Part shown: piece after piece, positions 14,893 through 64,000 of the stretch
Layout of the letters: the number at the start of each line of letters is the position of its first letter
Numbering within the stretch: position 1 is the stretch's first letter
Assembly (NCBI GenBank): GCA_022821495.1
Contig: JAJEDN010000078.1
Location: 30,612 to 94,611 of the forward strand
Length of the DNA stretch: 64,000 bases
Direction: 5' to 3'
Source of the DNA: Candidatus Poribacteria bacterium
GTDB lineage: Bacteria; Poribacteria; WGA-4E; WGA-3G
The notes under the pieces: model-generated
What the model saw: the letters and a program-made list of their open reading frames with translations, nothing else
Database searches by the model: none
Told to the model about the DNA's origin: nothing
Made by a program: the position numbers and the translations under genes

Positions 14893-14913
14893 CCCTAAAA
14901 GGGAGATTTAAGC

Positions 14914-16422
14914 ATGCAACCCAATTCACAACTAAAGGAAAGCCATAAACTCACCGACGCGCAGATGCGTGATTTTATTGTGAATGGATATATCACGATA
15001 AAAACGGAGCTGCCGCGCAGTGTTCATGAGACGATCTATCGCAAAACGCAGGAACTCACGGCAAAAGAAGGAAATTTAGGGAACAACATCTTGCCGCGTG
15101 TCCCCGAACTGCAAGCCGTTTTTGAGGATCCCACTGTCCGTGGCGCGTTCACGAGCATTTTGGGCGAGAATTACGTCATGCATTCGCATCGACATCCGCA
15201 TCAAAACCGTCCACACAGTGATGGACAGGGATTCCATAAGGATAGTTACTGGGGCTATCAGAAGGTGCGTCACCATTGCCCGCGCTGGGCGATGGCGTTC
15301 TACTACCCACAAGATTCGCCGCTCGAAATCGGTCCCTCAGCAGTCTTACCGGGCACGCAGTACTACAACACCCGAATCACCGAAGGGAACGATGGCGAAT
15401 TGGCACTCAGCGGCGAGGCTGGCACGATAGCTGTCATTCACTTCGACCTCTGGCACCGCGCCATGGCAAACCTGACCGATAAGACACGCTACATGATGAA
15501 GTTCCAATTCATCCGATTGGACGCACCAGAAGCGCCGGAGTGGAATGTGACGGATCCGCATTGGCAATCTGAAGACATCAATCCAGCAACACCCGCGCAT
15601 CAGGGAACCTGGCGACACGTCTGGAACTGGATGGCAGGTGAATCTAACGGGCGTTCGACATCGCCGACCAACGGAAACCTGACGAAGCACATTGAATCAT
15701 TAAGTGACCATGATCCATCTATCCGTTCCCACGCCGCTGATGAACTCGGCACGTTAGGTGAATCCGCTGCAGAGGCGGTGCCGCATCTCATCAAAGCGTT
15801 GCATGATGATTATGAACCCGTCTGTTTGAACGCCGCGTACGCACTCGGCGCAATTGGCGAACCGTCTGTTTCGCAACTGATTGAGGTGCTGAGTGATGAA
15901 AACGGAGCGACGCGACGGATGGCTGCCTACGCACTCGCTGCAGTCGGTACGCCAGCAGTCTCTGCTTTGAGTGAAGCGTTACAGCACACAGTGGATGCTG
16001 TGCGTGTTGAAGCCGCTTACGCTTTGGCACAAATAGGGGAGGCAGCGGAGCCTGCCATTCCAGCGTTGATGGAACGGACGAAAGATGATAATGTAGAAGT
16101 CCGCCGTTATCTGCCTGAAGCTTTTGGCAGCATCGGTCCCGCTGCAGCGCCCGCTGTGCCTGATCTAATTGATAGCATCGAGAACGACGATGATAAACAA
16201 GTGCGCTTTGAATCCGCATTGGCATTAGCACAAATTGGACCCGCTGCAAATGATGCTGTTCCGGTTCTGGCGAACGCGCTGAGAGATGAAGATCGTTATG
16301 TCCGGGATAATTCGATCCATGCACTAAAACGCATTGGCACCCGCGAAGCGGAATCGGCACTTTTTGATTATCTGCTCATGGCACGCTGGTGCCCGATCAC
16401 CCATCGCGAAAGCACACATTAA
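14914..16422 (+). CDS. PhyH-family dioxygenase domain fused to C-terminal PBS-lyase-type HEAT repeats
   Basis: N-terminal half with HRHPHQNRPHSDGQGFHKD and WHRAMAN (oxygenase-like). C-terminal half has ~7 repeats of the AA.ALG.IG pattern (E-Z type HEAT). Confidence 0.7.
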   Translation: MQPNSQLKESHKLTDAQMRDFIVNGYITIKTELPRSVHETIYRKTQELTAKEGNLGNNILPRVPELQAVFEDPTVRGAFTSILGENYVMHSHRHPHQNRPHSDGQGFHKDSYWGYQKVRHHCPRWAMAFYYPQDSPLEIGPSAVLPGTQYYNTRITEGNDGELALSGEAGTIAVIHFDLWHRAMANLTDKTRYMMKFQFIRLDAPEAPEWNVTDPHWQSEDINPATPAHQGTWRHVWNWMAGESNGRSTSPTNGNLTKHIESLSDHDPSIRSHAADELGTLGESAAEAVPHLIKALHDDYEPVCLNAAYALGAIGEPSVSQLIEVLSDENGATRRMAAYALAAVGTPAVSALSEALQHTVDAVRVEAAYALAQIGEAAEPAIPALMERTKDDNVEVRRYLPEAFGSIGPAAAPAVPDLIDSIENDDDKQVRFESALALAQIGPAANDAVPVLANALRDEDRYVRDNSIHALKRIGTREAESALFDYLLMARWCPITHRESTH

Positions 16423-16450
16423 CAAACTCGCATATTCGCCACCATTGTTG

Positions 16451-16475
16451 CAGGCGGGGTTTGTAACCCCGCCTG
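16451..16475 (+). terminator. Perfect hairpin caggcggggtttgtaaccccgcctg downstream of the PhyH-HEAT gene
   Basis: 11-bp stem with tgt loop, followed by tatcaatatttcat. Same GGGGTTTGTAACCCC core as 5386, 23323 and 30185. Confidence 0.5.
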
Positions 16476-16512
16476 TATCAATATTTCATAAGACATCACA
16501 TTAGGACCCAAT

Positions 16513-17664
16513 ATGAACTATCAACTTCTCATTAAAAACGGAACCGTCATCGATCCCGCACAGGGCATCCATGCCCGCAAAGATGTGGCATTCGCGAACG
16601 GACGCGTCTCAGCAATCAGTGATGAGATACCGACATCCGATGCGCGCGAAGTGCTAAATGCTGAAGGGTGTTTCGTTACACCGGGACTAATTGACTTACA
16701 CGTCCATGTTTTCTACGGCGTAAGCCACTTTGGGATTGAACCCGATCCTACCTGCTTGGCACGTGGCGCGACGACGGTCGTGGATGCCGGGTCAGCAGGC
16801 GCGGACACGTTCCCGGGGTTCCGTAAATACGTCATTGATGTCAGCGATACGCGCATCCTCGCACAATTAAATATCTCGTCGCAAGGTATGCTGACACAGG
16901 AGATCGGGGAGTTGGAAAATCCTGACTATGCAGACATCGGGAAGGCGTGTCAGATGATAGAGCAACATCGCGATATCATCTTGGGAGTCAAGGTACGATT
17001 GACGCGTGAGAGCATTGTTGGTGAGAGGGCACAGATGTTGCCGTTGCACAGCGCGCGTGAAGCCGCCGATGCTGCCGGACTCCCCATAATGGTGCATCCA
17101 CAAGACGCTTGGTGTGAATCTATTGACGATATATTGGCATTTATGGGTGAACGCGATATTTTAACCCACTGCTTCCACGATATGGAATGCGGCATCTTAG
17201 ATGAGCACGGCAAAGTTCGGGATGCTGTCCACGCAGCGATTGAACGCGGTGTTATCTTCGATGTAGGACACGGCGCGGGTTCCTTCAGCTGGGATGTCGT
17301 CCAGAAAGCGATGGTGCAAGGCGTTGAACCGACGACAATCTCTTCTGATCTGCATGTCTACAACGTTAACGGTCCCGTCTACGATCTCGTGAATGTCGTC
17401 AACAAATTCCTATATCTTGGTATGTCGCTTGACGATGCGCTTGCTAAGGTCACAAGTATCCCTGCCGAAACTATATTAATGCCCGGACAGGTCGGGACAT
17501 TAGCAGTTGATGCGTGGGGGGATGCAGTGATTTTTGAACTTCGCGAAGGTGAATTCCCGTTGATAGATGCGCGGGATCAAGTGAGGGTAGGCAAACAGAA
17601 ATTGGAACCGATTGCCGTTGTAAAAGGTGGACAAGTCTATCGCCAACACCACACACACGGCTAA
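16513..17664 (+). CDS. Amidohydrolase-1 superfamily protein (dihydroorotase / D-aminoacylase-like)
   Basis: VTPGLIDLHVHVF metal-binding motif, VVDAGSAG, IMVHPQD, FDVGHGAG. Confidence 0.75.
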   Translation: MNYQLLIKNGTVIDPAQGIHARKDVAFANGRVSAISDEIPTSDAREVLNAEGCFVTPGLIDLHVHVFYGVSHFGIEPDPTCLARGATTVVDAGSAGADTFPGFRKYVIDVSDTRILAQLNISSQGMLTQEIGELENPDYADIGKACQMIEQHRDIILGVKVRLTRESIVGERAQMLPLHSAREAADAAGLPIMVHPQDAWCESIDDILAFMGERDILTHCFHDMECGILDEHGKVRDAVHAAIERGVIFDVGHGAGSFSWDVVQKAMVQGVEPTTISSDLHVYNVNGPVYDLVNVVNKFLYLGMSLDDALAKVTSIPAETILMPGQVGTLAVDAWGDAVIFELREGEFPLIDARDQVRVGKQKLEPIAVVKGGQVYRQHHTHG

Positions 17665-17724
17665 AATTTCACTGGTGCGGTTTCTATTCTTGCACAAGGT
17701 TAATTTGCGAACGTGCGATGAATC

Positions 17725-17758
17725 GCCCTACTACAAACACACGCGTTCGTAGTAGGGC
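17725..17758. terminator. 10-bp stem hairpin (gccctactac...gtagtagggc) between convergent genes
   Basis: Perfect inverted repeat with a 14-nt loop. No clear U-tract. Confidence 0.4.
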
Positions 17759-17776
17759 AATTCTGCGGCGTACTCG

Positions 17777-17818
17777 CCCCGGGGAATGCCATAAGGCATT
17801 CATACCGTTGATTCATGC
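17777..17818. repeat. R3 dispersed element (CCCCGGGGAATGCCATAAGGCATTCATACCGTTGATTCATGC), second copy at 25677-25722
   Basis: Shares ataccgttgattcat 15-mer plus cc[ac]gggaatg[ct]cata[ac]gg with 25677-25722. Contains the GAATGCC/GGCATTC hairpin. Confidence 0.55.
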
Positions 17819-17875
17819 GAAGTGCATTATTGCCCGTCAATTGCCCAATTATTTTTCTCAGCCTCACTTTTCTCA

Positions 17876-19507
17876 TTACGGATGTTGTTCTCCCGCCTTC
17901 GGTTTCGCCTTTGGCGCGTTGGCATCCGCCCCGAAACGGATGTGAAGTGCCGCACCGCCGGCATGTTCTTTTCCGTAGAGTAGGTGCTTAATACCCCAGA
18001 AAAGGACAGTCGTCCCTACCAGCGTGACGATACCCCAGATGGATGTCTGCCAAATCCAGTCATTGAAATTAAAGAGACTGCCGGTCTGTTTCGGTACCAT
18101 CTGTGGACCCAATGCCATCAGTACGGTACAAATAATCGCATTGAGCGTAATCATACCTTCTGTCGTCAGACGATGTGGACTGAAACCGACCAAAGCACGT
18201 TCAAAGTTGAAAATAACCATCCACCAGATAAATACAAAAAAGAGCAGTTGTCCCTTCCCTAACCAGCTCGTTGGAATGAAAGCGAGAGGTTCGCGGAAAT
18301 GTGCTGACAAAAGCCAGACACAGGCGATACCAATGCCGATATAGAAAAGCTCAAACCACCCGATCCATCCCCTTGAGTTTCGGAGCCAACCGACGACGGG
18401 CAACCCAAAAAACCGCTCCGGTAAACCTTCAACCAGATCCACCCACGTCCCCGCTGCCTTCCGATAATTGACATAAGTCAGGAGGATTAGCACAGTGAAC
18501 ACAGCGAATATCTCTGTCCATTGCGGGAAATTTGGACTTGTTTCTAAAAGTGGTGTTTTATTTAAAAGGAGACCGAAAGGGATTGCAATCCCAATACCGA
18601 ATAAAAAACCTTGGGTTTGCTCCATGACACTGTGCCAATTCGTGTGCAAATTTGTTCGGTTCCCGATCCAGATGAAGACAATCTTCAGTAGTTGTCCAAA
18701 TGAAAACGCAACGCCACCGCCGAAGCCTGTCATCAGCGTAGCGAAAGCGACACCACTGAGGTCATAACGCCAGCAGTATACCAAAATGCCAATAACCATA
18801 CCGACACAGCCTGACCAGTTATCGCCACGCGGCGGGGTCATTCGCAACCTACAGACGTTTACCAACAACAGGAATCCAACGAACCAACCGGCACCCATGT
18901 AAAGAACGAGCGAGGTACCTATGTCCAAACCACCTCGGAAGAGCACGACAATCAGAGCTGCGACGATCGCTACCAATGCTGCGACCCAATCTGTATCGTA
19001 CCAATAGAGCGGACTTTCGTGCCGTTGCATCCGTTTCGGTGCCAGCACCCAATCAATGATCGCTGCTTGGAGCGACCAACCGATGAACACAGCAGCGATA
19101 GGCACAAACAATAAAGAGAGTTGCGTATGCGTCAGAAACATAGGGAGCGCAGTGCCCGCACCACCCAAGGCTGCCCATAAGAAACCGATGGCGAATAGAT
19201 TCGCGAATCCATAAAATACGGTCAGCGATTGCGGCGAATGGCTGTACCCGACAACCATCATATAGGACATACTCCCACCGAACGACCAACCAATCGCGCC
19301 AAACAACGCAAAGTAGTGGACATGCCGCCACCAGTCTTCTCGTCCTGAAAGTAGGACGATTGCCATTGCAGCGAGTCCACCTGCGAGTGCTGCACCATAT
19401 TCATGCCCGAAGTTTCCACGTATTCCCCATCCGACACATACAGATAACCCACACAGAAGTACCATTTCCCACGGAATAATTGCCAGATCCATATCTATAG
19501 CCTCCAT
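17876..19507 (-). CDS. Large polytopic integral membrane protein of unknown function (>=12 predicted TM segments, Trp/Gly-rich)
   Basis: Long ORF with alternating hydrophobic stretches. No motif recognised. Confidence 0.6.
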   Translation of the reverse strand: MEAIDMDLAIIPWEMVLLCGLSVCVGWGIRGNFGHEYGAALAGGLAAMAIVLLSGREDWWRHVHYFALFGAIGWSFGGSMSYMMVVGYSHSPQSLTVFYGFANLFAIGFLWAALGGAGTALPMFLTHTQLSLLFVPIAAVFIGWSLQAAIIDWVLAPKRMQRHESPLYWYDTDWVAALVAIVAALIVVLFRGGLDIGTSLVLYMGAGWFVGFLLLVNVCRLRMTPPRGDNWSGCVGMVIGILVYCWRYDLSGVAFATLMTGFGGGVAFSFGQLLKIVFIWIGNRTNLHTNWHSVMEQTQGFLFGIGIAIPFGLLLNKTPLLETSPNFPQWTEIFAVFTVLILLTYVNYRKAAGTWVDLVEGLPERFFGLPVVGWLRNSRGWIGWFELFYIGIGIACVWLLSAHFREPLAFIPTSWLGKGQLLFFVFIWWMVIFNFERALVGFSPHRLTTEGMITLNAIICTVLMALGPQMVPKQTGSLFNFNDWIWQTSIWGIVTLVGTTVLFWGIKHLLYGKEHAGGAALHIRFGADANAPKAKPKAGEQHP

Positions 19508-25649: not shown

Positions 25650-26035
25650 CGATAGGTTCGGTTTTGCGGTGTACACACCCCAGGGAATGTCATACGGAAA
25701 CCTTTATACCGTTGATTCATACAATCTGTATTCCCAACCAAACCAGATACGACGTGGAAACCTTGAAGACTTCAAAAACCTCCTGAATCCGGTAGGGTTT
25801 ATTTTCTTGGGTGTTTCTTCAGTATCTCTGTAGAGTTCAACCTCCTGAATCCCGTAGGGATGGTATCTCTGTAGAAAAACGCGCCGTCACCGACCTAAGC
25901 CCCGTAGGGGCGATATCTATAGAGGTCTACAGCGAAAAATTAACAGAACGGGACTGAAGACGGGACCTCCACCTTATAGTGTGATGTTTTTCAAACCTCT
26001 CTTGAATCCCGTAGGGATGGTATCTCTGTAAAGAA
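25650..26035. repeat. Composite R3/R4 repeat cluster
   Basis: taggttcggtttt at 25653. R3 copy at 25677-25722. ggaaaccttgaaga at 25757. Copies of CCTCCTGAATCCCGTAGGGATGGTATCTCTGTAGA at 25777, 25841 and 25995, plus the variant AAGCCCCGTAGGGGCGATATCTATAGAGG at 25897. Confidence 0.75.
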
Positions 26036-52578: not shown

Positions 52579-52784
52579 TATCCCTTTGTTCTTATCGAAC
52601 CCACCACTGAAAATGTTGCAAGGATTTGGGAAGATACGGTATAATGTCAAAGAGGTAGAAGTTTGAAAATAGCGCGAGAGATGGAGGCAAAAGTTGAAAT
52701 TCATATTAAGCCTTCGGACAAAACAGTCAATCACCAGCGAGTTTTTGTTACGTAACGATGTTTGTTTTCCGGAGAAAGACGCTA

Positions 52785-53558
52785 ATGCTACTCAAGGATC
52801 GTGTTTGCATTGTAACCGGTGGAAGTTCCGGTATCGGACGTGGCATAGCACTTGAATTCGCCCGTGAGGGCGCGTGTGTTGCTGTCGTAGATAAACGAGA
52901 AACACCCCTTCGCGGTAGATATCACGAAACCGAGGTCACAACCCCAACCGTTGTAGAGATCAAAAAACTTGGCGCGCAGGGTATATTCCTTCAAACCGAT
53001 GTCGCCGATGACTCTCAGATTGCGAACGCAATTCAGCAAACCGTCGAACACTTCGGTGGACTTGATATTCTCGTCAATAACGCCGGTATCCACATCCCTG
53101 GGGGTTCGCAAGAAATCTCGATTGCCGATTGGGATAGTGTCGTTGGCGTTAACCTCCGCGGCGTTTTCGTCGCTACGAAACTCGCAATCCCACATCTAAA
53201 GCAGTCAAAATTTGGACGAATTATCCAAATTGCCTCTGTTCACGCCTATGGCGGCGGAGCAGGACCTGCGTATGCACCCGCGAAAGCTGCTGTCGTTAAC
53301 ATGGTACGAGATACTGCCTTAGAAATCGGTCAATTCGGCATAACCGTCAACGCCATTTGCCCGGGTTATATTGAAACGGCAATTCAAGACTACCTCACCC
53401 CCGAACAGATTGAAGAAGCATTGGAAAAAACCGCCCTACCGCGTTTCGGTCTACCGAGAGACATCGGACGTGCCGCTGTTTTCCTCGCTTCCGACGACGC
53501 AGAGTGGGTCACCGGTGCGTCCCTACTCGTTGACGGTGGCTTCGCCGCAGGCGTATAG
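52785..53558 (+). CDS. SDR family oxidoreductase
   Basis: TGGSSGIGRGIA, NNAG, Y..AK catalytic pair (YAPAKAA). Confidence 0.85.
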   Translation: MLLKDRVCIVTGGSSGIGRGIALEFAREGACVAVVDKRETPLRGRYHETEVTTPTVVEIKKLGAQGIFLQTDVADDSQIANAIQQTVEHFGGLDILVNNAGIHIPGGSQEISIADWDSVVGVNLRGVFVATKLAIPHLKQSKFGRIIQIASVHAYGGGAGPAYAPAKAAVVNMVRDTALEIGQFGITVNAICPGYIETAIQDYLTPEQIEEALEKTALPRFGLPRDIGRAAVFLASDDAEWVTGASLLVDGGFAAGV

Positions 53559-53600
53559 TAGTAGGCACGTTCCGCGTGCCGTCCACAAGGGAAACAACAC

Positions 53601-54398
53601 ATGCAAACAAATCCATGGGGAACAATCCGTTTTACAGATAAAGTCGCGTTAATAACAGGAGGTGCCTCTGGCATCGGTAGAGCAACAGCGAACCGCCTCG
53701 CAGCCGAAGGCGCGCATGTTATCATCGCCGACAACAACGCCGAAATGGCGCGCACGACAGTCGCTAAAATCGAGGAGACAGGCGGTAAAGCGACCTACAT
53801 AGAAGTGGATCTTGCTGATGACGAAAGCGTCACCACCGCCGCGCAAACTGTCGCCGAAAAGTTTTCTGCACTCCACGTGCTCGTCAATAACGCTGCTATC
53901 TTGAGAAGCGGTAAAATTGAAGACGGCGCGTGGATACCCAATTGGGAACCCGAAACCGCAATCGGGCTCCGAGGTTGGGTCCTGATTACGCAGCATCTTT
54001 TACCGCTTATGAAAAAAGAGGGTGCCGCGATTGTTAACCTCTCATCGGAAGGCGGGTTTCTCGGTAGACCCGGACAGTGGATCTACGATGCCATTAAAGC
54101 CGGACTCGTCTCTCTCACCAAAACGATGGCGCAGGAATTTGTCGAATACGGTATTCGGGTTAACGCCATTGCACCGGGTTGGATCGTTACAGAGATGCAC
54201 TTCGGTAAAGCAACCGACCCTGAGGCTCAGAAGAAGGCGTTAGAGGAATTAACGATCTCCTCGTGTATCATGAAACGTCTTGCCAAACCTGAAGAGGTCG
54301 CCGCCGCTATCGCTTTTCTCCTCAGTGACGATGCCTCCTACATTACAGGTCAGACTTTACACGTTGATGGTGGTCGTTGGGGAATGTCTGTCGGTTGA
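53601..54398 (+). CDS. SDR family oxidoreductase
   Basis: TGGASGIGRATA, NNAA, Y..IK (YDAIKAG). Confidence 0.85.
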   Translation: MQTNPWGTIRFTDKVALITGGASGIGRATANRLAAEGAHVIIADNNAEMARTTVAKIEETGGKATYIEVDLADDESVTTAAQTVAEKFSALHVLVNNAAILRSGKIEDGAWIPNWEPETAIGLRGWVLITQHLLPLMKKEGAAIVNLSSEGGFLGRPGQWIYDAIKAGLVSLTKTMAQEFVEYGIRVNAIAPGWIVTEMHFGKATDPEAQKKALEELTISSCIMKRLAKPEEVAAAIAFLLSDDASYITGQTLHVDGGRWGMSVG

Positions 54399-54426
54399 TT
54401 TTCCTTTAATCTCGTCTATTTACACT

Positions 54427-54972
54427 ATGCCAAACAAAACCCACACCACAGCGGTTGTTCTGATCCCGCCAGAAAACGTACAACCCCCCATCCAAGCCAT
54501 CCGCCGGATTCATGATCGCAACTTCGAGCGTTGGATGCCCCATATAACGCTGCTCTACCCATTCGCAGCGCGTCGTGATTTCACAGAGATTACGCCCGCG
54601 CTCACAAAAGCCGCACAACAGATAACATCCTTTTCCATTGAACTCACACGTTTTAACGCTTTCAAACATCGCAAATCTTGTACGATGTTTCTTGTTCCAG
54701 AACCCGAAGACGAAATCGGTCAGTTACACAGCACGCTATTACAACACCTTCCAGACTACGACGACACCGCACAATTTGCCGGTGGGTTCCATCCTCACCT
54801 CTCCGTCGGACAATTCCAGCATCGATCTCTGCAGACCGAGCAGCAGCGTCTCCAAACCGAATGGCAGCCGATAGCGTGTGAAATGAAATCGCTCAGTCTT
54901 ATCTACCGCTCACCTCAAACAGATGACAGGTTCGTCATAGCGGAACAATTTCCGTTTCAGAAAAGGAACTAA
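54427..54972 (+). CDS. 2H phosphoesterase superfamily protein (LigT / 2'-5' RNA ligase-like)
   Basis: Two HxT/Sx motifs: HITLLYPF and HLSVGQF. Confidence 0.65.
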   Translation: MPNKTHTTAVVLIPPENVQPPIQAIRRIHDRNFERWMPHITLLYPFAARRDFTEITPALTKAAQQITSFSIELTRFNAFKHRKSCTMFLVPEPEDEIGQLHSTLLQHLPDYDDTAQFAGGFHPHLSVGQFQHRSLQTEQQRLQTEWQPIACEMKSLSLIYRSPQTDDRFVIAEQFPFQKRN

Positions 54973-54974
54973 CA

Positions 54975-56147
54975 ATGAAAACAAATATTTTCCTAACCCT
55001 AATCGCAATCTTAATTATATCTCTTGCAGGATGCGAACGCATACAACAAATCGTTGCCCGTGATGCACCCACATCGGACACGACATCTACCATCAAAATC
55101 GGCGTGATCCAACCCTCGGGACTTGCCCCCAACTTCACCAGAGGCGCGGAACTCGCCAGAACCCAAATTAACGATGCTGGCGGTCTACTCGGCATGCAAG
55201 TCGAATTTATTGTCATGGACAATCAAGGCGATCGCGAATTCCCAAACGCAGCCGAAAGCGTCCGTATTGCTAAAGTTCTCATTGAAAAGATAAACGTTGT
55301 CGCAATCTTAGGTCCCCTACTCTCAACGAATTCCATGCAAGTTGGACCCGTTGTTTCTGAGCTTCGGCGACCCATAATTACCGGTTCGTCCGGTGAGAAG
55401 GTAACCTCGACAGGCGAATTCGTCTTTATTACGGTTGTTCCGTCCTCAGTTCAAGGTATGACAACGGCACAATTCGCATTAGATCCCACCGAACTGAACG
55501 CCAAAACCGCCGCGACAATCCGTCAAGCTGGAGATGTGTACTCCGGTGCTGTCGCTGACGCTTTTGAGGCGAATTTTCAGGAACTCGGTGGAAAACTCGT
55601 CGCAAGTGAAGTCTATCAACACGGCGATAGAGATTTTGCCGCGCAGTTGACAAAAATTAAAGCCGCAGCCCCGGATGTTTTCTTAATAGCCGGTTTTAAC
55701 CCAGAGATCCCTTTATTGGCAGCACAGGCGAGGGATATAGGGATTACGGCAACCTTTATCGGTACCAATGGTTGGGATGAGTCTGACAAACTTCTTGGCA
55801 CTTTAGATGACAACGCACCTCTCGAAGGAGCTTACTTCACCAGAGGTTTCAATGTCGAGTCCGTCAGTGCTCCTGCCTTTGTTGCGGCGTACACAGCGAT
55901 GTATATCGAACCGCCGGATGGTCCCGCCGCATGGGGCTACGATGCGATGTCGCTACTCGCACTCGCCATCAAAAACGCTGGAACGCTTGATCCTGATGCC
56001 ATTCGCGATACCTTGGCAAACACAACCGACTACCAAGGCGCGACCGCTATCTCCCATTTTGATGAGAATCGCCATCCCATCAAATACCATGAACTTTACA
56101 CAATCCGCAACGGGCAGATAGAACTCTACAAGGTTGTAAGTCCATAA
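54975..56147 (+). CDS. ABC-transporter substrate-binding lipoprotein (LivJ/K branched-chain amino-acid-binding family), paralog 1
   Basis: Lipobox LAGCE. Type-I periplasmic binding fold signatures. Confidence 0.75.
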   Translation: MKTNIFLTLIAILIISLAGCERIQQIVARDAPTSDTTSTIKIGVIQPSGLAPNFTRGAELARTQINDAGGLLGMQVEFIVMDNQGDREFPNAAESVRIAKVLIEKINVVAILGPLLSTNSMQVGPVVSELRRPIITGSSGEKVTSTGEFVFITVVPSSVQGMTTAQFALDPTELNAKTAATIRQAGDVYSGAVADAFEANFQELGGKLVASEVYQHGDRDFAAQLTKIKAAAPDVFLIAGFNPEIPLLAAQARDIGITATFIGTNGWDESDKLLGTLDDNAPLEGAYFTRGFNVESVSAPAFVAAYTAMYIEPPDGPAAWGYDAMSLLALAIKNAGTLDPDAIRDTLANTTDYQGATAISHFDENRHPIKYHELYTIRNGQIELYKVVSP

Positions 56148-56173
56148 GCAATCCGCCAGACAAGGAGGTAACA

Positions 56174-57346
56174 GTGAAACTAAAAATTTTCTTAACCCTC
56201 ATTACAATTATAGTTATATCCTTTACCGGATGCGAACGCGTAAAACAGGTGATTGCACCTGATGCTCCCGCTCCCGATGCCGTTTCTACTGTTAAAATCG
56301 GTGTGATTCAACCCTCGGGATACTACACCGGGTTTGCCCAAGGTGCCGAACTCGCTCGCACCCAAATCAATGCGCGCGGTGGTGTGCTCGGCAAGCAAAT
56401 TGAATTTATCGTCAGGGATAACCAAGGAACGCGTTCCGTCCCGGATGCAGCCGAAAGTGTTCGTATTGCAAAAACACTCATTGAGCAGGAGGAGGTTGTT
56501 GCAATTCTCGGTCCCATTTTCTCTAACAATTCCATAGAGGTCGGACCTGTTGTTCAGCAACTTCAGCGTCCGATCATTCCCGGCTCCGCTGGCGATCATG
56601 TGACCGCTGCAGGGGATTTTGTCTTTCTCGTCGTCCCTACGACATCAGCCCATGGCGCGGTAATAGCACAATTCGCAAGCGATCCGTCCGAACTCGGCGC
56701 AACAACCGCCGCGACGATCCGTCAAACTGAGAGTGCTTACACAGAGAGCCTAACCCAAGCGTTTGAAGAGAATTTTCGGGAACTCGGTGGCAAAATCGTT
56801 GCCAGTGAAGTTTATCAAGTTGGCGATAACACCTTTGATGCACAACTGACAAACATCAAAGCCGCAGCACCCGATGTGATATATATTGCAGGTATTATTC
56901 CAGATATTCACTTCGTGATGGCGCGAGCCAGAGAAATCGGTATTCAAGCCACTTTTCTTGGGCCCGGAAGTTGGGATGAGGTTCAGAAGCTTTTCAGTAC
57001 CTTAAATGATAACGCACCGTTAGAGGGGGCTTATTTTACCGCAGATTTTAGTCCAGAGGTACCGAGTGCCGAACCCTTTGTTCAAGCTTATACGGCGCTG
57101 TCTATGACACCGCCAGATAGCGCAGCTGCTTCAGGTTATGATGCCATGTTACTCTTAGCGACTGCAATTGAAGAGGCGCAGACGCTCAATCCTGCTGCCG
57201 TTCGCGATGCCCTTTCAAATATCACCAACCACAAAGGCGCGACGTTTATTTCCCATTACAGTGTCAATCGCCACCCGATTAAAAGCGTTGTCATTAACAC
57301 AATCCGCAATGGGCAGATCGAACTCTACAAGGTTGTGAACCCATAA
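56174..57346 (+). CDS. ABC-transporter substrate-binding lipoprotein (LivJ/K family), paralog 2
   Basis: aggagg RBS then GTG. Lipobox FTGCE. ~55% identical to paralog 1 by eye. Confidence 0.75.
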
Positions 57347-57392: not shown

Positions 57393-58958
57393 ATGAATAC
57401 CAATCTCGCCGATATCGAAAATAGGCTCTGGAGTGCCGCCGATGAACTCAGAGCCAATTCACGCCTTAAGGCGTCCGAATACTCAACACCTGTCCTCGGG
57501 CTTATCTTTTTACGATACGCCGATCACAAGTTTACACAGGCTGAACAAGACATCAGCAGCGAAGCCGATCCAAACAGCCGCAGGCAGCCCGACCTGAGAA
57601 TGGAATGTCAAGCCCGCGGTGTACTTTATCTGCCAGCGCATTCGCGGTTTCAATACATACTCAGTTTGCCAGAAGGTGAAAATATCGGGCAAGCTATCAC
57701 TGATGCTATGAAGGCAATAGAGGCGGAAAACTCACAAATAGAGGGTGTCCTTCCCAAAACTTACAATCGACTTGAAAAGAACACGCTCCTCGAACTCCTC
57801 CGTATCATGGAACAGATCCCTATGGACATTGAAGGAGATGCTTTCGGGAAGGTTTATGAGTACTTCCTCGGCAATTTCGCCATGAGCGAGGGGCAACGCG
57901 GCGGTGAATTCTTCACACCAACCTCGCTCGTGAAACTCATCGTTGAGATTATCCAACCCTTTCACGGACGCATCCTTGATCCTGCCTGCGGATCCGGTGG
58001 AATGTTTGTCCAGAGTGCAGCGTTCATTAGCAACCACAAGAAAAATGGCAACCCCGGAGACATCAGCATTTACGGCGTTGAACGCGTCGTTGAAACGATC
58101 AGGCTGTGCAAAATGAATCTCGCCGTTCATGCCCTTGAAGGCGATATTAAACAAGCCAGCAGTTACTACGAGGATCCGCACAACTGCCTCGACAGATTTG
58201 ATTTCGTCATGGCAAATCCACCTTTCAACGTCGATCGCGTGGACAGAGAACGGATCAAAGACGATCCGCGATTCCCGTTCGGCATGCCCCGTGTCGATAA
58301 TGCCAACTACCTTTGGATACAATTGTTCTATAGTTCGCTTTCCGAATCCGGGCGTGCAGGTTTCGTCATGGCGAACTCCGCCGCCGATGCCCGTGCCTCT
58401 GAACTCGACATCCGCCGCCAGATTATCGAATCCGGCGCAGTCGATGTCATCGTCAGCATCGCCTCGAATTTCTTTTATACCGTTACCTTACCCTGTACCC
58501 TCTGGTTCTTCGATAAGCCCAAACGGAACAGCGATAGACACGATAAAGTCTTGTTCATTGACGCACGCCATCTCTATCAACAGGTGAGCCGCGCCCATCG
58601 GGAATTCACACCCGGACAACTTGAATTCCTTGCAAACATCGTCAGACTTTATCGCGGAGAAGCACCAGAGAACCAACACGACAGTGCAGATTTCCTCACC
58701 TCAAAATTCCCCGATACAGAATACATTGATGTCCCTGGACTTTGCAAGGTCGCCACGATTGCCGAGATTGAGACACAAGGCTGGAGTCTGAACCCCGGAC
58801 GCTATGTCGGCGTTGACGAACAGACAACCGACGATTTCGACTTCACCGAACGATTTACGCAGCTCAACGAGGAGTTAGCAGTCCTAAACGCCGAAGCACA
58901 TCAACTCGAAGAACGCATCGCCGAGAACGTTGCAAAGATTTTGGAGGATACGGTATAA
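57393..58958 (+). CDS. hsdM: Type I restriction-modification system methyltransferase subunit HsdM (N6-adenine)
   Basis: N-terminal HsdM_N (LWSAADELR). Motif [12 protein letters not shown]. Motif IV ANPPFN. Confidence 0.9.
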
Positions 58959-58976
58959 TGTTGATGGAGGGAAAAA

Positions 58977-59303
58977 ATGAGTGAAGAAGTCAAAATTGAG
59001 GAAAGTTCTGGAAATGTGTTTCTGGACATCGGTTTCTCCAAAGAAGAGGCGGAATATCACCAGTTAAGGGTAGACTTGGCGATTAAAATTTATCGACTTT
59101 TTGAGGAACTAAAACTGACTCCGGCGAAAGCAAAGGCAGACTTTGGAATCAATCCATCTGATGTGTCCCGAATACAGAACGGAGATTTTAGTTTTACTAT
59201 GGACAAACTCTTTACAATCCTGAGCCAGTTGAACTGCAATGTTGAAATCCGCATTACACTTTCGGAAGATACCCAGGGGCACCTGCGACTCGTTACAACT
59301 TAG
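58977..59303 (+). CDS. XRE-family HTH protein (HigA-antitoxin-like / possible controller) inserted in the R-M operon
   Basis: SGNVFLDIGF..EEAEYHQLRVDLAIKIYRLFEELKLTPAKAKADFGINPSDVSRIQNG...FTMDKLFTILSQLNCNVEIRI matches the HigA/XRE antitoxin pattern. No upstream toxin ORF. Confidence 0.65.
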   Translation: MSEEVKIEESSGNVFLDIGFSKEEAEYHQLRVDLAIKIYRLFEELKLTPAKAKADFGINPSDVSRIQNGDFSFTMDKLFTILSQLNCNVEIRITLSEDTQGHLRLVTT

Positions 59304-59336
59304 TTATTGTTTTCCGTAGAGATGGCATCCGTATAA

Positions 59337-59392
59337 GAACAAAAAATCTGGTAACACTCTGAAGAATGTGGCATAATATTACAGAGGCAGGT
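59337..59392 (+). promoter_or_regulatory. Promoter-like 50-bp repeat copy 1 (extended -10 TGGCATAAT), oriented antisense to the HNH gene
   Basis: aaaaaatctggtaacactctgaagaatgtggcataatattacagag is ~80% identical to 60159-60212. Confidence 0.4.
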
Positions 59393-59450
59393 TTTGAATA
59401 ATAAGATAAAAGGACGAAGGCTATTTTCCGTCGCCCATTTGTGTAAGCGT

Positions 59451-59711
59451 TTACCTTTTTTTGTACGGATATTTCGTCCCTTTACGGCGGTTCTCCTTCG
59501 TTTGAAGTGCCTGAAGGTTGCGAGGATTGTCGGTTCCCCCCTTTGACTTAGGGCGTTTATGATCTACTTGCCAACTTTGTTTGCCCTCTTTACCATACGC
59601 AGGCTTGTAGATTTTATTGCCGCTTGAGTCACGTCGCCAGAGATTCGGGTTTTTACCTCGAATTGGTTTGGCTTTTTTCCAAGCGATTTCTTTTTGTTTT
59701 CGCGTTGCCAT
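59451..59711 (-). CDS. Small basic HNH nuclease-domain protein (86 aa)
   Basis: WQVDHKRPKSKGGTDNPRNLQALQTKENRRKG HNH motif. aagaggtg RBS. Own TTGACA, 17 nt spacer, TAATAT promoter. Confidence 0.7.
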   Translation of the reverse strand: MATRKQKEIAWKKAKPIRGKNPNLWRRDSSGNKIYKPAYGKEGKQSWQVDHKRPKSKGGTDNPRNLQALQTKENRRKGTKYPYKKR

Positions 59712-59747
59712 TTTTATTTCACCTCTTTTCTTTCGGTTATAGTTTAT

Positions 59748-59776
59748 ATATTAACATGTGTTGCGATATTTGTCAA
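59748..59776 (-). promoter_or_regulatory. Consensus sigma70 promoter of the HNH gene (minus strand)
   Basis: Reverse complement of 59748-59776 reads ttgacaaatatcgcaacacatgttaatat. Confidence 0.55.
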
Positions 59777-59820
59777 CCATAAGCGTCAATTTTAGAAACA
59801 ATAACCGCCTCCGCCCCAGA

Positions 59821-60100
59821 CCCGGTAGGTTCGGTTTCCTAACCGAACCGGATACTACGCGGAAACCTTGGATATGCCAGAACCCCTCTTTAGCCCCGTA
59901 GAGGCGGCATCTGTGTAGAACGCGTTCACCCCTAAAAAATCAAGCCCCGTAGGGGCGGCATCTATTAAGTAAGGCCCTACAAAATACCGTGAAAAAAATC
60001 TAAATCGACCCTTATGGGGCGGCATCTACAAAGACCTGTCAAAAATGTCGTGGAAAATCGCTAAATTGACACCTATGGTTCGGTTTCCTAACCGCACCGG
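59821..60100. repeat. Composite R4 repeat cluster
   Basis: Bracketed by direct copies of ggttcggtttcctaaccg[ac]accgg (59829-59851, 60077-60100). Contains ggaaaccttggata and 3 units of AGCCCCGTAGGGGCGGCATCT + ...gtgaaaaaatc (59892, 59943, 60007). Homologous to 25650-26035. Confidence 0.75.
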
Positions 60101-60158
60101 ATTGTCGAAAAGCGGCGTGAAATTCAAGATTTTCTTAAAACTAAATGGTCCTGATATC

Positions 60159-60212
60159 ACACTAAAAAATCTGGCAATTCTCTGATGCGTATGCTATAAT
60201 ATCGTAGAGAAA
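60159..60212 (+). promoter_or_regulatory. Promoter-like 50-bp repeat copy 2 (extended -10 TGCTATAAT) upstream of the 380-aa unknown gene
   Basis: aaaaaatctggcaattctctgatgcgtatgctataatatcgtagag. Gene start at 60281 with aaaagga RBS. Confidence 0.5.
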
Positions 60213-60280
60213 ACAACCGGAAAAATAGGGTGCTCACTTACCATCCAGCCCGAACAACAGTTGATCAAAAGGATTCCATA

Positions 60281-61423
60281 ATGTCTGACGAAACGAAACC
60301 GGATCTACCCACGACAACTGAAGATGAAACAAACACAGATCTTGATGTTGTTCCCAAGGATACAGCGGGAAACATGCTTGATGCTGTCACCGATTTTATA
60401 TCAAAATTGGATCTTTCTACTTGGTTAGGGCGAAACGCGTCTAAGGCTTTTGGCAAATTATGTTCTGCGCCAAGTAAGTGGTATAACGCGTATTTTGAAG
60501 GGAAAGCTGCTGAAACTCGTGCAGAATCAGAGGCACGAGTCAAAATTATAGAGGTAGGGACTGATCAAATTATCCAACAAATGAAAGTCCCTCCAGAATA
60601 TGCTCAGATAGCACTAAACAAGAACATGGAAAAGATAATTGGAGAGCAAATCAACCTTGATAAAATCTCCGCTATTGCTGCAAGTGAACTTAATAACGGC
60701 GAATCGGATAACCCAGCAAATCAAGGCACAAATCAACCTAATGAAGCACAATCTGATAATTCGACAAATCAGGATGCAAACGGTGGTGAGGAAAAGACGA
60801 TAAGTGATGTCTGGCTTAACATTTTTGAGACGGAAGCGCGCCCACAGAGTACTGAGGAGGGGCAGATCCTTTTCGGTCGCATCTTGGCTGGAGAAATTAA
60901 AAATCCAGGATCGTATTCAACGCGAACATTAAAAACCCTCGGTGAATTGGATCAAAATATTGCAGCCTTGTTTAAAAAATTGTGTTCGGTATGCATAGTT
61001 CTTAATAATCCGATTGATGACGCCCTTATTGATATTAGGATTCCCTCACTAGGTGGCAATCCCGGAAGGAATGTCCTCAGAAAATACGGTTTGCCTTTTA
61101 GTAAACTCAATACATTAAATGAATATGGGCTTGTTATTTCAGATTATAATTCTGGTGTTGATTATCAAGTGTCTATAGTGGATAAAAATCATCGAGTCCT
61201 TGCTCCATTTCTGCACCAAGGACAATATTGGGCTTTACAGTCTACATTAGAGCGAGAGCACGATGAAGAGTTTAGAATATGGGGAGTCGCACTTTCTCAG
61301 GTTGGCCGCGAATTGTTTCAAATAGTCGAGCAAGATTCCATACCGGAATACACTGAAGATCTAAAGAAATTCCTTATGGGGCAGAACCTACAAATGATTG
61401 AAGTTCAATCTCAATCATTCTAA
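60281..61423 (+). CDS. Hypothetical protein, possibly DUF2806-like, inserted between hsdM and hsdS
   Basis: 380 aa. Two alpha-rich halves separated by a low-complexity linker (NQGTNQPNEAQSDNSTNQDANGGEE). Motif ILAGEIKNPGSYSTRTL recalls the DUF2806 signature (from memory, unverified). Confidence 0.6.
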   Translation: MSDETKPDLPTTTEDETNTDLDVVPKDTAGNMLDAVTDFISKLDLSTWLGRNASKAFGKLCSAPSKWYNAYFEGKAAETRAESEARVKIIEVGTDQIIQQMKVPPEYAQIALNKNMEKIIGEQINLDKISAIAASELNNGESDNPANQGTNQPNEAQSDNSTNQDANGGEEKTISDVWLNIFETEARPQSTEEGQILFGRILAGEIKNPGSYSTRTLKTLGELDQNIAALFKKLCSVCIVLNNPIDDALIDIRIPSLGGNPGRNVLRKYGLPFSKLNTLNEYGLVISDYNSGVDYQVSIVDKNHRVLAPFLHQGQYWALQSTLEREHDEEFRIWGVALSQVGRELFQIVEQDSIPEYTEDLKKFLMGQNLQMIEVQSQSF

Positions 61424-61449
61424 AAAGAGATAGTGGAATAGAAAGTTCT

Positions 61450-62619
61450 ATGCCAAACAGCGAAGTTCTAATTGGGGATTACATTCAAACCCTAAGAAAA
61501 AAACATAAAATAAAAAAATCTGAGTATTTATCCAGCGGTAATATTCCCGTGGTTGACCAAGGTCAAGACTTTATTGCTGGTTACATAGATGATACCAAGC
61601 GAGCTTATGATGGGCAACTTCCTGTCATTGTCTTCGGCGACCACACCTGCACTTTGAAATATGTAGATTTCCCCTTTGCAGTAGGCGCAGATGGTACACA
61701 GCTGATACATCCTACAAAGGACTTTGACATCCGTTACTTCTATTATGCATTACAAAATTTGCCTTTGGAACATTTCGGCTATCAAAGGCATTTTAAGTAT
61801 CTAAAAACGTCAAAAGTTTTTTGCCCACCGATGCACATCCAGCGCAAAATCGCCGCCATCCTCTCCACCTACGATAACCTCATTGAAAACAACACCCGCC
61901 GCATCAAAATCCTTGAAGACATGGCACAAACCCTCTACCAAGAATGGTTCGTCCATTTCCGCTTCCCCGGACATGAGAACGTCCAGATGGTAGAATCGGA
62001 ATTAGGACTGATACCACAGGAATGGAAGGTAGTTCCTGCAAGTGAAGCCATGTTTGTAAATCCAAAAACTTCTGTTCCACGCGATACCATAAAACCATTT
62101 GTCCCAATGAAGTCAGCGACAGAAAATTCAATGCTAATCACCGAAATCGAAGAAAGAACGGGAAATAGTGGGGCGAAGTTTAAAAATGGAGACACGCTAT
62201 TTGCGCGTATCACACCATGTCTTGAAAACGGTAGAACGGGTTTTGTTCAGTTTCTGTCTAATAATGATGAGATCGCTTTTGGATCTACCGAATTTATCGT
62301 CCTCAGGTCCAAAACGTTGAATCCATATTTTGTCTATCTTTTGGCACAGACTCGCGATTTTAGGGAGAATGCTATCAAGAGTATGACAGGTGCAACAGGC
62401 AGACAGCGTGTTCTCAATGAATGTTTCGATGATTATTTTTTACCAAATCCTGATCAAGATGTACTTTGTCAATTTGAATCTACCATTGCCCCTCTGTTCA
62501 GGAAAGTTCAGAGTCTTTCGGAAAGAAATGAGAATCTCCGCCAAACCCGAGACTTCCTTCTCCCTAAACTCATCTCCGGCGAGACTGATGTATCTAAACT
62601 TGACATTAACACCAATTGA
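61450..62619 (+). CDS. hsdS: Type I restriction-modification system specificity subunit HsdS (two TRDs)
   Basis: N-terminal LIGDYIQTLRKKHKIK...IPVVDQGQDFIAGYIDD. Central conserved repeat ILEDMAQTLYQEWFVHFRFPGHE. C-terminal RQTRDFLLPKLISGE. Confidence 0.85.
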   Translation: MPNSEVLIGDYIQTLRKKHKIKKSEYLSSGNIPVVDQGQDFIAGYIDDTKRAYDGQLPVIVFGDHTCTLKYVDFPFAVGADGTQLIHPTKDFDIRYFYYALQNLPLEHFGYQRHFKYLKTSKVFCPPMHIQRKIAAILSTYDNLIENNTRRIKILEDMAQTLYQEWFVHFRFPGHENVQMVESELGLIPQEWKVVPASEAMFVNPKTSVPRDTIKPFVPMKSATENSMLITEIEERTGNSGAKFKNGDTLFARITPCLENGRTGFVQFLSNNDEIAFGSTEFIVLRSKTLNPYFVYLLAQTRDFRENAIKSMTGATGRQRVLNECFDDYFLPNPDQDVLCQFESTIAPLFRKVQSLSERNENLRQTRDFLLPKLISGETDVSKLDINTN

Positions 62620-62633
62620 AACATAGAGGTAAA

Positions 62634-64000
62634 TGATGCTTTCAGGAGTTCTAACAGAAGTTTACAAAGACATTCGTGGAGCAATTAAGAAGAAACGCGA
62701 AGAGTCAGAGGCAGAAAAGGCAGAAATTGAAAATGCCGCCCACCAGTATGAGAAGAAATACAGAGAACACCACGGCCAAGTCAAAGTCTTCTGTGTAGGT
62801 ATGCGTGAACCGATCCCTCTTGATGATGTCTATGTCGCCGTTCAATTCTTAGACAATCAAAGCACATCAAAGTACGGAACCCCTGAAGATGTTGAAAAGG
62901 CATTCCGACAAAGATCTCCAAACCGCTTTATTTCAAGTGCCGATGAGCGAAAAGATGGAACGGTGGTTGCTAACGAAAAACAGTATCTGATGGTACTCGG
63001 CGGGCCCGGTGTCGGTAAATCAACCTTCCTTCGTAAGGTTGGACTTGAAGCATTAAAAGGGGAGAACGGAAACTTTGAACACGCATGTATCCCTGTCTTC
63101 CTTGAACTAAACAGGTTTACTGAAACTCAGATTGAGATTGAAACCGTAATTGCTGACAAATTTAAGACCTACCACTATCCATACCTGGATAAAATGGTTA
63201 GAAGTGCATTAGATTCGGGGAAATTCCTGATACTTTTCGACGGACTTGACGAAGTCCCTGCTGCGAATGTTGACAATGTAGTGCGTAAAATTGGAGATTT
63301 CGTCGATCGATATAGCCAAAACCGCTTTATCGCTTCATGTCGGATAGCGGCATATAAAGGAGGGTTCACGCGGTTTACAGAAGTCGAGATGGCGGAATTT
63401 GACGATGCACAGATTAAGGTGTATATCAAAAATTGGTTTGATTCAACACCTCACCAATACCGGTATCAACTTGACAAGGATATGAAAACTGCCCAAAATT
63501 GCTGGCAGGCGTTAAACTCAATAGGACATCACGCGACCAAGGAGTTGGCGCGGAATCCGTTATTACTCACGCTTCTATGTCTGGTTTACGACAACTCGCA
63601 AAACTTCCCGCGAAATCGGGCAGATCTCTATGAAAAAGCACTCAGCATATTTCTTGAGGAATGGGCGGCTGAAAAGCGGATCAGCCGAGAAGAATCAATC
63701 AGTCAGTACTTGGACATTGCGGCTGAAAAACGGATGCTTTCTGAAATCGCAGCGAAGAATTTCGAGGAAAACCGCCTCTTTTTCAGTAAGGATGAACTCA
63801 TCGATCAGATTCAAAAATTCGGTGACGGGAATGCCAATACACCACCAGAGTTCAATGCCCCCAAGATCTTAGAAACAATTCTTGTTGATCAGGGACTTTT
63901 CATTGAGCAAGTTAGCGGCTCCTACTCTTTCTCTCATTTGACCTTTCAAGAGTATTTGACAGCGAATTATATCGTAAGGGATACGAGGTCAATTCAAGGG
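62634..64000 (+). CDS. NACHT-domain STAND NTPase (partial, continues beyond window end). This ORF is absent from the supplied ORF track
   Basis: agagg RBS then ATGATG. Walker A LMVLGGPGVGKSTFLRKV. Walker B FLILFDGLDEV. NACHT-type NPLLLTLLCLVY. No stop before 64000. Confidence 0.75.

Follow-up and report, generated by a model that had tools for sequence, protein, structure and literature searches.

A type I restriction-modification operon of Candidatus Poribacteria that likely carries defence and toxin-antitoxin cargo at both of its junctions

We analyzed a type I restriction-modification (R-M) locus at the end of a 64,000-nt stretch of a Candidatus Poribacteria bacterium genome (contig JAJEDN010000078.1; hereafter, the window), together with its parent contig and related loci. 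The gene order at this site is hsdM-[slot M-S]-hsdS-[slot S-R]-hsdR. We consider it likely that these genes belong to one chromosomal type I R-M operon whose two junctions both hold independent defence and toxin-antitoxin cargo modules. The M-S slot comprises an orphan HTH_37 gene, a self-contained HNH cassette with a dispersed repeat, and a gene for a DUF2806 protein that has a predicted promoter of its own. In the S-R slot, a NACHT-NCH2 gene is followed by the gene for an ABC ATPase of HEC-01-like type, by a pair of TOPRIM-like DUF4276 paralogues and then by hsdR. Such an operon would provide layered defence, with R-M acting first and abortive systems second.

Open reading frames (ORFs) were searched with Pfam, PADLOC and NCBIfam profiles, promoters and terminators were sought by consensus scans, and the window proteins were compared with related loci by tblastn. 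The parent contig (L001), a 130.5-kb scaffold of an ENA metagenome assembly, was identified by an exact hsdS match (window coordinate = L001 + 51449). The related loci were 18 further Poribacteria loci, comprising 13 species-representative loci selected by DUF2806 and five selected by NACHT, and 80 non-poribacterial metagenome loci (hsdM 63–78% identical) that come, going by sample names, from soil, sediment and freshwater.

The R-M frame and its two cargo slots

A sequence-only reading of the window, made without database searches, had placed hsdM and hsdS here, and both genes gave strong Pfam and PADLOC matches (Table 1); the domain calls of that reading proved correct throughout when its ORFs were searched. 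HsdS has the form of a specificity subunit with two target recognition domains, with PADLOC Specificity_I matches spanning residues 5–387. The absence of hsdR noted in the sequence-only reading holds for the window itself and not for the parent contig, the downstream part of which that reading had proposed to examine: hsdR begins 5.1 kb past hsdS, just outside the window, and is cut by the contig end. In orthologous loci hsdR is full length, encodes ResIII and SWI2_SNF2 domains in a protein of 1053–1054 aa, and has PFK as the next gene. By profile searches, all three subunits of a type I R-M system are therefore encoded on the parent contig. Because hsdR was found beyond the NACHT and HEC-01-like genes, the operon has two cargo slots, M-S and S-R, and the NACHT gene, earlier described as merely following the R-M locus, is embedded cargo that shares the S-R slot with the HEC-01-like genes rather than an operon neighbour.

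In the other Poribacteria loci, hsdM is 77–97% identical to the window gene, the hsdR N-terminus 63–91% and hsdS 32–55%, with conserved central and C-terminal stretches in hsdS. The GC fraction falls from ~0.50 in hsdM to 0.40–0.43 from the HTH gene onward.

Table 1 Features of the window, of the downstream part of its parent contig (L001) and of the slots of three relatives. Positions are those of the window unless a locus is named.
Feature	Position	Strand	Evidence
hsdM, type I R-M methyltransferase subunit, 521 aa	57393-58958	+	Pfam N6_Mtase 1.4e-81, HsdM_N 1.9e-22; PADLOC MTase_I 3.8e-222
HTH_37 (HigA-like) gene, 108 aa	58977-59303	+	Pfam HTH_37 3e-14
55-nt promoter-like element, first copy (direct repeat D2)	59332-59386	+	71% identical to the DUF2806 promoter
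HNH mini-cassette: promoter, gene, terminator-like hairpin	59390-59790	-	
HNH gene, 86 aa	59711-59451	-	Pfam HNH 2.2e-6
Predicted HNH promoter, TTGACA-17-TAATAT	59776-59748	-	consensus scan
Terminator-like hairpin of the HNH cassette	59432-59413	-	consensus scan
Repeat cassette	about 59775-60102		inverted repeat, palindromes and hairpin motifs
18-nt inverted repeat of the repeat cassette	59775-59792 / 60063-60080		
Two 26-nt palindromic elements of the repeat cassette	59828-59853, 60077-60102		
Three hairpin motifs, CCCCGTAGGGGCGGCATCT-like, in the repeat cassette	59892, 59943, 60007		
Predicted DUF2806 promoter, CTGGCA-18-TATAAT with extended -10 TG	region 60155-60209, boxes 60171-60200	+	consensus scan
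DUF2806 protein, 380 aa	60281-61423	+	Pfam DUF2806 2.5e-22
hsdS, type I specificity subunit, 389 aa	61450-62619	+	Pfam Methylase_S 1.2e-13; PADLOC Specificity_I 3.3e-78
NACHT-NCH2 STAND NTPase, 5' part (455/768 codons)	62636-64000	+	Pfam NACHT 1.2e-11
ABC-type ATPase, 412 aa	L001, after NACHT gene		PADLOC HEC-01A 5.2e-46; AAA_21 2.6e-26, AAA_15 2.5e-25
DUF4276-like (TOPRIM-like) protein, 246 aa	L001, after ABC ATPase		PADLOC HEC-01B 7.9e-7
Second DUF4276-like paralogue, 180 aa, MISVRVWNLQSD...	L001, start ATG 15751 (not 15775 as called)		
hsdR N-terminus	L001 16316-16738 (start = window 67765)	that of the operon	HSDR_N 1.8e-25; PADLOC REase_I 1e-13
Second intergenic cluster of the hairpin motif, CCCGTAGGG(N2)GG(N)ATCT	25790-26030		3-4 copies, spacing 50-107 nt
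8xMP membrane protein and 395-aa SLFN_AlbA_2 protein, between hsdM and DUF2806	L009 8046-9777		
PDDEXK_3 nuclease, between hsdM and DUF2806	L011 9077-9679		
Three small ORFs, between hsdM and DUF2806	L004 7866-9105		
IS605-type TnpB, S-R slot	L004 13806-15104		OrfB_IS605, Cas12f1-like TNB domain

Slot contents vary among related loci

The sequence-only reading had viewed the R-M locus as a hotspot for defence cargo and had suggested comparing gene order among relatives. The comparison supports that view: non-core genes vary between hsdM, hsdS and hsdR across the 18 Poribacteria loci, as embedded cargo does, and the stretch 58977–61423 is variable inside a conserved hsdM...hsdS frame. The M-S slot holds HTH_37 alone in L098, HTH_37 and HNH in L101 (neither locus having DUF2806), HTH_37 and DUF2806 in L013, and HNH and DUF2806 in L007; DUF2806 occurs with neither HTH_37 nor HNH in L009, L011, L012 and L014, the last of which has a DUF433/DUF5615-like toxin-antitoxin pair in their place. 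Since HTH_37, HNH and DUF2806 occur independently in related loci, they are three modules, not one system. What had been described as a single 2.5-kb insertion is thus resolved into three parts, the two larger of which each have their own predicted promoter.

The closest comparison comes from L101, which derives from the same study as the window and whose hsdM is 97% identical. The two sequences are colinear from the SDR genes at ~90% nucleotide identity up to ~60017–60025, inside the repeat cassette, from where L101 runs straight into hsdS and lacks a 1.4-kb DUF2806 module. The module of promoter and DUF2806 gene is therefore a presence/absence polymorphism. We also considered DUF2806 as a fixed core gene of the poribacterial operon and dropped this idea, as three NACHT-selected loci lack it.

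The S-R slot is also variable, holding NACHT without HEC-01 in L012, small toxin-antitoxin-like ORFs only in L006, L009, L010 and L013, and a TnpB gene in L004; PIN toxins and UPF0175/DUF3368 are among its occupants in other loci. Overall, Pfam searches of the relatives' ORFs identified as cargo a Gp49 toxin, TIR_2, SLFN_AlbA_2 with 8xMP, PDDEXK_3 and TnpB, and precomputed Pfam calls for L098, L099 and L101 added PIN, DUF433/DUF5615 and UPF0175/DUF3368. The three small M-S ORFs of L004 matched no Pfam family above gathering score, with weak coiled-coil matches for one of them. The slot genes of L009, L011 and L004 are possible defence candidates. In L099 we observed a decaying operon (6648–8984), with hsdM reduced to a 196-aa fragment and hsdS split into two ORFs, in which the NACHT gene, the HEC-01-like genes and hsdR are still intact.

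None of the 80 non-poribacterial loci contained DUF2806, HTH_37, HNH or the NACHT gene; in these loci hsdS mostly follows hsdM directly, and S-R gaps range between 0 and 5 kb. The residence of DUF2806 in the M-S slot is specific to the poribacterial lineage.

An orphan HTH_37 gene follows hsdM

The HTH gene after hsdM is HigA-like, as the sequence-only reading had it, and its presence is patchy, some related loci having it and others not. In L003, L006 and L010 it is preceded by a 118-aa ORF, which in L003 encodes a Gp49/HigB-like toxin (1.5e-22) and is alike by sequence in L006 and L010, so that these three loci carry a complete Gp49/HigB-HTH_37 toxin-antitoxin pair. No Gp49/HigB toxin precedes HTH_37 in the window, because only 18 nt separate hsdM from the HTH gene. 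The window gene is, by homology, an orphan, the putative surviving antitoxin or regulator of such a pair. Kept at 65–96% identity, it may still have a regulatory or anti-addiction role.

A DUF2806 module of probable Belisama type in the M-S slot

The protein encoded upstream of hsdS had been called DUF2806-like, and it matches DUF2806 (PF10987) above the gathering cutoff at residues ~171–377, the domain that characterizes the Belisama type. The earlier statement that the gene combination of this slot has no name stands insofar as no PADLOC model covers the trio, and fails insofar as DUF2806 alone matches a named type. The N-terminal half is disordered or helical with a low-complexity linker, and an AlphaFold2 model likewise gave a low-confidence helical/disordered N-terminal half and a confident alpha/beta C-terminal domain. 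The start at ATG 60281 is supported by the MSDE start and AAAGGAT ribosome-binding site, both kept in 13 relatives, and an alternative start at GTG 60230 was rejected on the same grounds. The predicted promoter, which would leave a 5' untranslated region of ~80 nt, is conserved in sequence in L005 and occurs in weaker form in L003, L009 and L011.

Homologues of the DUF2806 protein gave 677 matches, mostly in Candidatus Poribacteria metagenome-assembled genomes (MAGs), the best 120 of which are full length, and the window protein is 41–71% identical to its Poribacteria relatives. The same two-part architecture was found in 6955 cluster representatives at E≤1e-3. All 100 family representatives sampled match DUF2806, and five of them also match Abi_alpha weakly, consistent with the remote Abi-alpha homology of Belisama. 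A PDB sequence search with the DUF2806 profile returned no matches.

Outside Poribacteria, none of the sampled contexts of DUF2806 (six full-length relatives and four plasmids) includes R-M genes. The full-length relatives occur in hotspots of two P2-like prophages (L103, L107), next to AbiH and HigB in an integron-like Aliivibrio cassette array (L104), as stand-alone genes (L105, L108) and in an nSTAND3/transposase island (L106). Plasmid-borne copies are found in Acaryochloris (beside NACHT genes and HicAB), Legionella (with a small HTH gene upstream), Phaeobacter and on enterobacterial IncX4 plasmids, the proteins of the last being 27% identical to the window protein over the domain. The closest non-poribacterial relative lies on the Acaryochloris marina S15 plasmid NZ_CP064926.1 (L015; 40% identity, 93% coverage), where two NACHT-domain genes, a HicAB pair and transposases surround DUF2806 in the stretch 8983–19029; this is the second site at which DUF2806 and NACHT genes lie together. 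In the poribacterial locus L002, DUF2806 and HEC-01 are still present at the same chromosomal site, and the 10 kb on either side of DUF2806 contain no R-M genes. Because DUF2806 stands alone outside Poribacteria and is kept without R-M in L002, it behaves as an autonomous mobile module, and the window protein would by extension be autonomous too.

Belisama is a single-gene DUF2806 anti-phage cassette of the Vibrio cholerae chromosomal integron; it has remote Abi-alpha homology, is toxic when over-expressed and, at high multiplicity of infection, makes the culture lyse (Darracq et al. 2024, bioRxiv 10.1101/2024.07.02.601686). The poribacterial gene resembles it in being a single gene whose DUF2806 domain is a remote relative of Abi_alpha, and the relatives of the window protein resemble it as isolated cassettes in mobile hotspots, including the Aliivibrio array. 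Unlike Belisama, the poribacterial gene lies inside an R-M operon; the likeness is drawn through the shared domain, and beside Belisama the window protein has a long helical/disordered N-terminal half. The poribacterial DUF2806 protein is most likely a Belisama-like single-gene abortive-infection protein, as judged by this domain.

NACHT and HEC-01-like genes in the S-R slot

The NACHT-type STAND NTPase that runs off the window end, as the sequence-only reading described it, carries both Walker motifs of an NTPase module (GPGVGKST and ILFDGLDE). Its start codons, given earlier as an ATGATG at 62634, occupy 62633–62638, so that the gene starts at 62633 or 62636. On the parent contig the gene ends at L001 13493 (window 64942) and the full 768-aa protein has a NACHT domain (1.6e-11) and a C-terminal NCH2 helical domain (7e-8). 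The C-terminal sensor repeats that had been anticipated are not there: residues 1–110 match no domain and the C-terminus holds NCH2 alone, so that neither an effector nor a repeat-type sensor was recognized in the protein. A PDB sequence search gave no matches. The protein has 3766 homologue matches, mostly in Candidatus Poribacteria MAGs, the best 120 of which are full length. Orthologues 62–88% identical occupy the S-R slot of L012, L098, L099 and L101; the gene directly follows hsdS in 4/5 sampled loci, including L012, L098 and L099, and in L101 it follows a DUF5615 insert and an hsdS 3' remnant. The family is otherwise uniform at 750–830 aa, and one homologue (P0149, 1170 aa) carries TIR domains (PF01582, PF13676), a fusion that hints that the NACHT-NCH2 family could couple to a TIR effector.

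The known bNACHT proteins are bacterial NLR-related NACHT proteins of an NNH-NACHT-NCH architecture type (Kibby et al., bioRxiv 10.1101/2022.07.19.500537). Like them, the window protein is a NACHT NTPase encoded by a single gene in a defence context, its N-terminus being short and helical and its C-terminal domain helical and of NCH type; unlike them, it exceeds the cutoff of no curated bNACHT/Avs model and has no recognizable effector or repeat-type sensor. It is probably an NLR-like phage sensor, going by its domains and context.

Downstream of the NACHT gene, a HEC-01A-type ABC ATPase is adjacent to a HEC-01B-like partner of 246 aa, whose DUF4276 match (1.7e-5) lies under the Pfam cutoff. 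A 180-aa protein, 33% identical to this partner (E 1e-23), is its paralogue; the two tandem DUF4276/TOPRIM-like genes span L001 15001–16293 and are followed by hsdR. Several relatives carry the 180-aa type as the sole HEC-01A partner. In the LES motif, the E of the 246-aa paralogue and of L003 corresponds to Q in the 180-aa paralogue of this genome and of L014; this residue may be the TOPRIM catalytic glutamate.

Relation to known embedded systems

PrrC is an ABC-ATPase anticodon nuclease that is physically regulated by the R-M enzyme EcoprrI, and PrrC/EcoprrI and the Rlo genes of Campylobacter are cargo embedded in type I R-M loci. The poribacterial locus resembles these in having a gene of abortive-infection type inside a type I R-M operon, probably co-transcribed with R-M subunits; unlike PrrC, DUF2806 lacks any ATPase or nuclease signature, the operon can do without it, and elsewhere it is autonomous. 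Embedding of defence genes has been described for type I R-M, BREX, DISARM and Hma operons, with HEC-01 as an Hma-embedded candidate (Payne et al. 2024, bioRxiv 10.1101/2024.01.29.577857). As in those systems, the poribacterial cargo is nested between type I R-M core genes and varies between relatives, and the S-R ABC ATPase and its TOPRIM-like partner match the PADLOC HEC-01A and HEC-01B models. Unlike those systems, the poribacterial locus uses both junctions, its DUF2806 and NACHT-NCH2 cargo match no PADLOC model, and it is a chromosomal locus of one phylum with the same neighbour genes flanking it in varying order; unlike the published HEC-01, its pair comes with two tandem DUF4276 paralogues. 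DarTG2 embedded in type I R-M is controlled by the small repressor RptR (Zhang et al. 2025, PMC12255303). The window shares with it a type I R-M operon with an embedded toxin-antitoxin/defence module and a gene for a small DNA-binding protein, but HTH_37 is a HigA-type antitoxin homologue located after hsdM, RptR stands at the operon start, and the two are not homologues. The embedding phenomenon, the HEC-01 pair and the defence role of DUF2806 are already published, and the locus exemplifies this established pattern; specific to it are the use of both junctions, the Belisama-type DUF2806 in M-S and the NACHT-NCH2 protein in S-R.

Weighing the alternatives

Several points count against reading the slots as independent defence cargo. 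Defence roles for the poribacterial DUF2806, NACHT, HNH and HEC-01-like proteins are putative, assigned from homology and context, and the Belisama membership of DUF2806 is assigned through a shared Pfam domain. HEC-01 gave no protection in its original test (Payne et al. 2024). The NACHT protein was above cutoff for no curated antiphage NACHT model in PADLOC, where it had no match, or in NCBIfam, where antiphage_EruA matched at 5e-14 with 51 bits against a cutoff of 1000. Because the 13 loci were chosen by DUF2806 itself, its frequency in poribacterial R-M operons is known solely from the small NACHT-chosen sample, in which it is 1/4. The transcription units are those predicted by consensus scans only. 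Finally, DUF2806 is the last gene before hsdS in 11/11 Poribacteria loci scorable for both, a position that also fits a functional link between the two.

This last point is also an argument for a different account, which we regard as unlikely, namely that DUF2806 is an accessory or guard of the R-M enzyme in the manner of PrrC/EcoprrI rather than autonomous cargo. HsdMS would hold DUF2806 inactive until a phage anti-restriction attack freed it to cause abortive infection, a mechanism that we likewise consider improbable; were it true, PrrC-like logic would have been built from an unrelated fold, with DUF2806 co-transcribed with hsdS from its own promoter. Beyond its constant position, the DUF2806 gene is separated from hsdS in the window by a gap of 27 nt with no predicted terminator, it evolves fast in the way of a specificity or arms-race component (41–71% identity versus 77–95% for hsdM), and PrrC itself is found as cargo almost exclusively inside type I R-M (Payne et al. 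2024). However, L098 and L101, with hsdM 96–97% identical, have intact-looking R-M operons without DUF2806, and L002 has DUF2806 with R-M genes absent from the 10 kb on either side. The association is also confined to Poribacteria: DUF2806 is found in none of the 80 orthologous hsdM loci elsewhere, its sampled relatives outside the phylum are R-M-free, and Belisama acts as a single gene (Darracq et al. 2024). We therefore retain the reading of DUF2806 as independent cargo.

It is very unlikely, in our judgement, that the cargo is mainly selfish or addictive DNA, such as toxin-antitoxin remnants, a free-standing homing-type HNH gene, miniature inverted-repeat transposable element (MITE)-like repeats and an IS605 TnpB, that piles up in a tolerant intergenic site and makes no contribution to phage defence. 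Toxin-antitoxin pairs or their remnants, dispersed repeats and a TnpB do account for many of the occupants, with HTH_37 as an orphan; HEC-01 showed no defence when tested, as noted above; and the truncated hsdM and fragmented hsdS of L099 indicate that the locus can decay. Yet the larger cargo genes are intact ORFs kept at 60–88% identity across many Poribacteria, the numerous DUF2806 and NACHT homologues are full length among the best 120 matches of each, and validated defence systems elsewhere contain these domains, Belisama in the case of DUF2806 and the bNACHT proteins in that of NACHT. We give next to no credence to HTH_37, HNH and DUF2806 being a single new system of regulator, nuclease effector and sensor: the genes are adjacent in the window in a combination that matches no PADLOC model, and a small HTH gene also precedes DUF2806 on the Legionella plasmid, but in related loci they pair up in all ways or stand singly, HNH lies on the opposite strand with its own predicted promoter and terminator, and HTH_37 is the antitoxin half of the Gp49 pair in L003, L006 and L010.

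The HNH mini-cassette and its repeats

The sequence-only reading had pointed to a small, oppositely oriented HNH gene with its own consensus promoter and to a repeat cassette beside it, and both are well founded. The whole HNH cassette, promoter included, is conserved in L007 (protein 79% identical, with DNA that aligns) and in L101 (98% identical); it was not found in 12/13 DUF2806-selected loci, nor in the NACHT-selected loci L098 and L099. Opposed to hsdM, the cassette would probably block read-through from that gene, in which case the DUF2806 promoter would drive DUF2806-hsdS-NACHT. The 55-nt promoter-like element at 59332–59386, whose core motif occurs twice against 0.01 expected, is directed into the 3' end of the HNH gene and lies inside the stretch colinear with L101. 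We rejected it as a conserved antisense-RNA promoter for HNH: it is missing from the HNH cassette of L007 and is therefore not part of the HNH module.

The repeat cassette is non-random in its composition of inverted repeat, palindromes and hairpin motifs, the 26-nt palindromic element being present in two copies with 0 expected by chance. Its hairpin motif (59890–60030) clusters again at 25790–26030 and is also present in L003 and L101, which suggests a repeat dispersed across the lineage; the motif had no matches in 841 kb of non-poribacterial loci. A mini-CRISPR array was rejected, with no array reported by Tandem Repeats Finder and the motif present in another intergenic region, and so was a structured RNA, as Rfam matched no family to the cassette and gave sub-threshold chance matches only (CRISPR-DR31, 19.7 bits against a cutoff of 35).

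Recombination scars and gene order

Partial copies of R-M gene ends lie beside the operon and its cargo. Upstream of the first SDR gene, positions 52597–52647 duplicate the 3' end of hsdM, stop codon included, over 51 nt (82% identical, E 7e-11), and short HTH_37 fragments follow up to 52775. Partial hsdM 3' copies also occur in L004, L014 and L002, in the last two at the equivalent place, and hsdS 3' remnants occur in L011 and L101. High-identity blocks between relatives begin and end in the conserved central and C-terminal regions of hsdS. We propose that modules may be gained, lost and swapped by homologous recombination with conserved R-M gene ends as anchors; recombination at such ends would yield scars and block boundaries like those observed.

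The hsdM remnant upstream of the SDR genes means that the SDR-SDR-LigT-PBP-PBP block (52758–57346) is bracketed by this remnant and intact hsdM. The two PBP genes (54975–57346), directly upstream of hsdM, are tandem 390-aa Peripla_BP_6 lipoprotein paralogues ~60% identical to each other. Related loci have one or two PBP copies, and in L006 and L013 the gene right after PBP encodes the HEC-01-like ATPase. Across Poribacteria, the R-M operon takes at least four different positions relative to the SDR/LigT/PBP block: the operon lies between a rotamase gene and the SDR block in L004, L006 and L013; it lies after the PBP genes in the window, L014, L098 and L101; L003 (2489–12458) has the hybrid order hsdM-Gp49-HTH_37, SDR-TIR_2-SDR-LigT-PBP, DUF2806-hsdS; and in L002 DUF2806 and HEC-01 are kept in the arrangement described above, with no R-M genes in the 10 kb on either side.

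Significance

The locus is a clean natural case of 'guilt by embedding' in the sponge-symbiont phylum Poribacteria. Sponge symbionts are reported to be enriched in R-M and other defence genes, and the locus fits such reports. The partial hsdM and hsdS 3'-end duplications beside the cargo suggest how cassettes are exchanged, and the unannotated slot genes form a catalogue of candidates for defence screening. In this uncultivated phylum, the locus also gives two families, Belisama-type DUF2806 and the large NACHT-NCH2 family, a defence setting.

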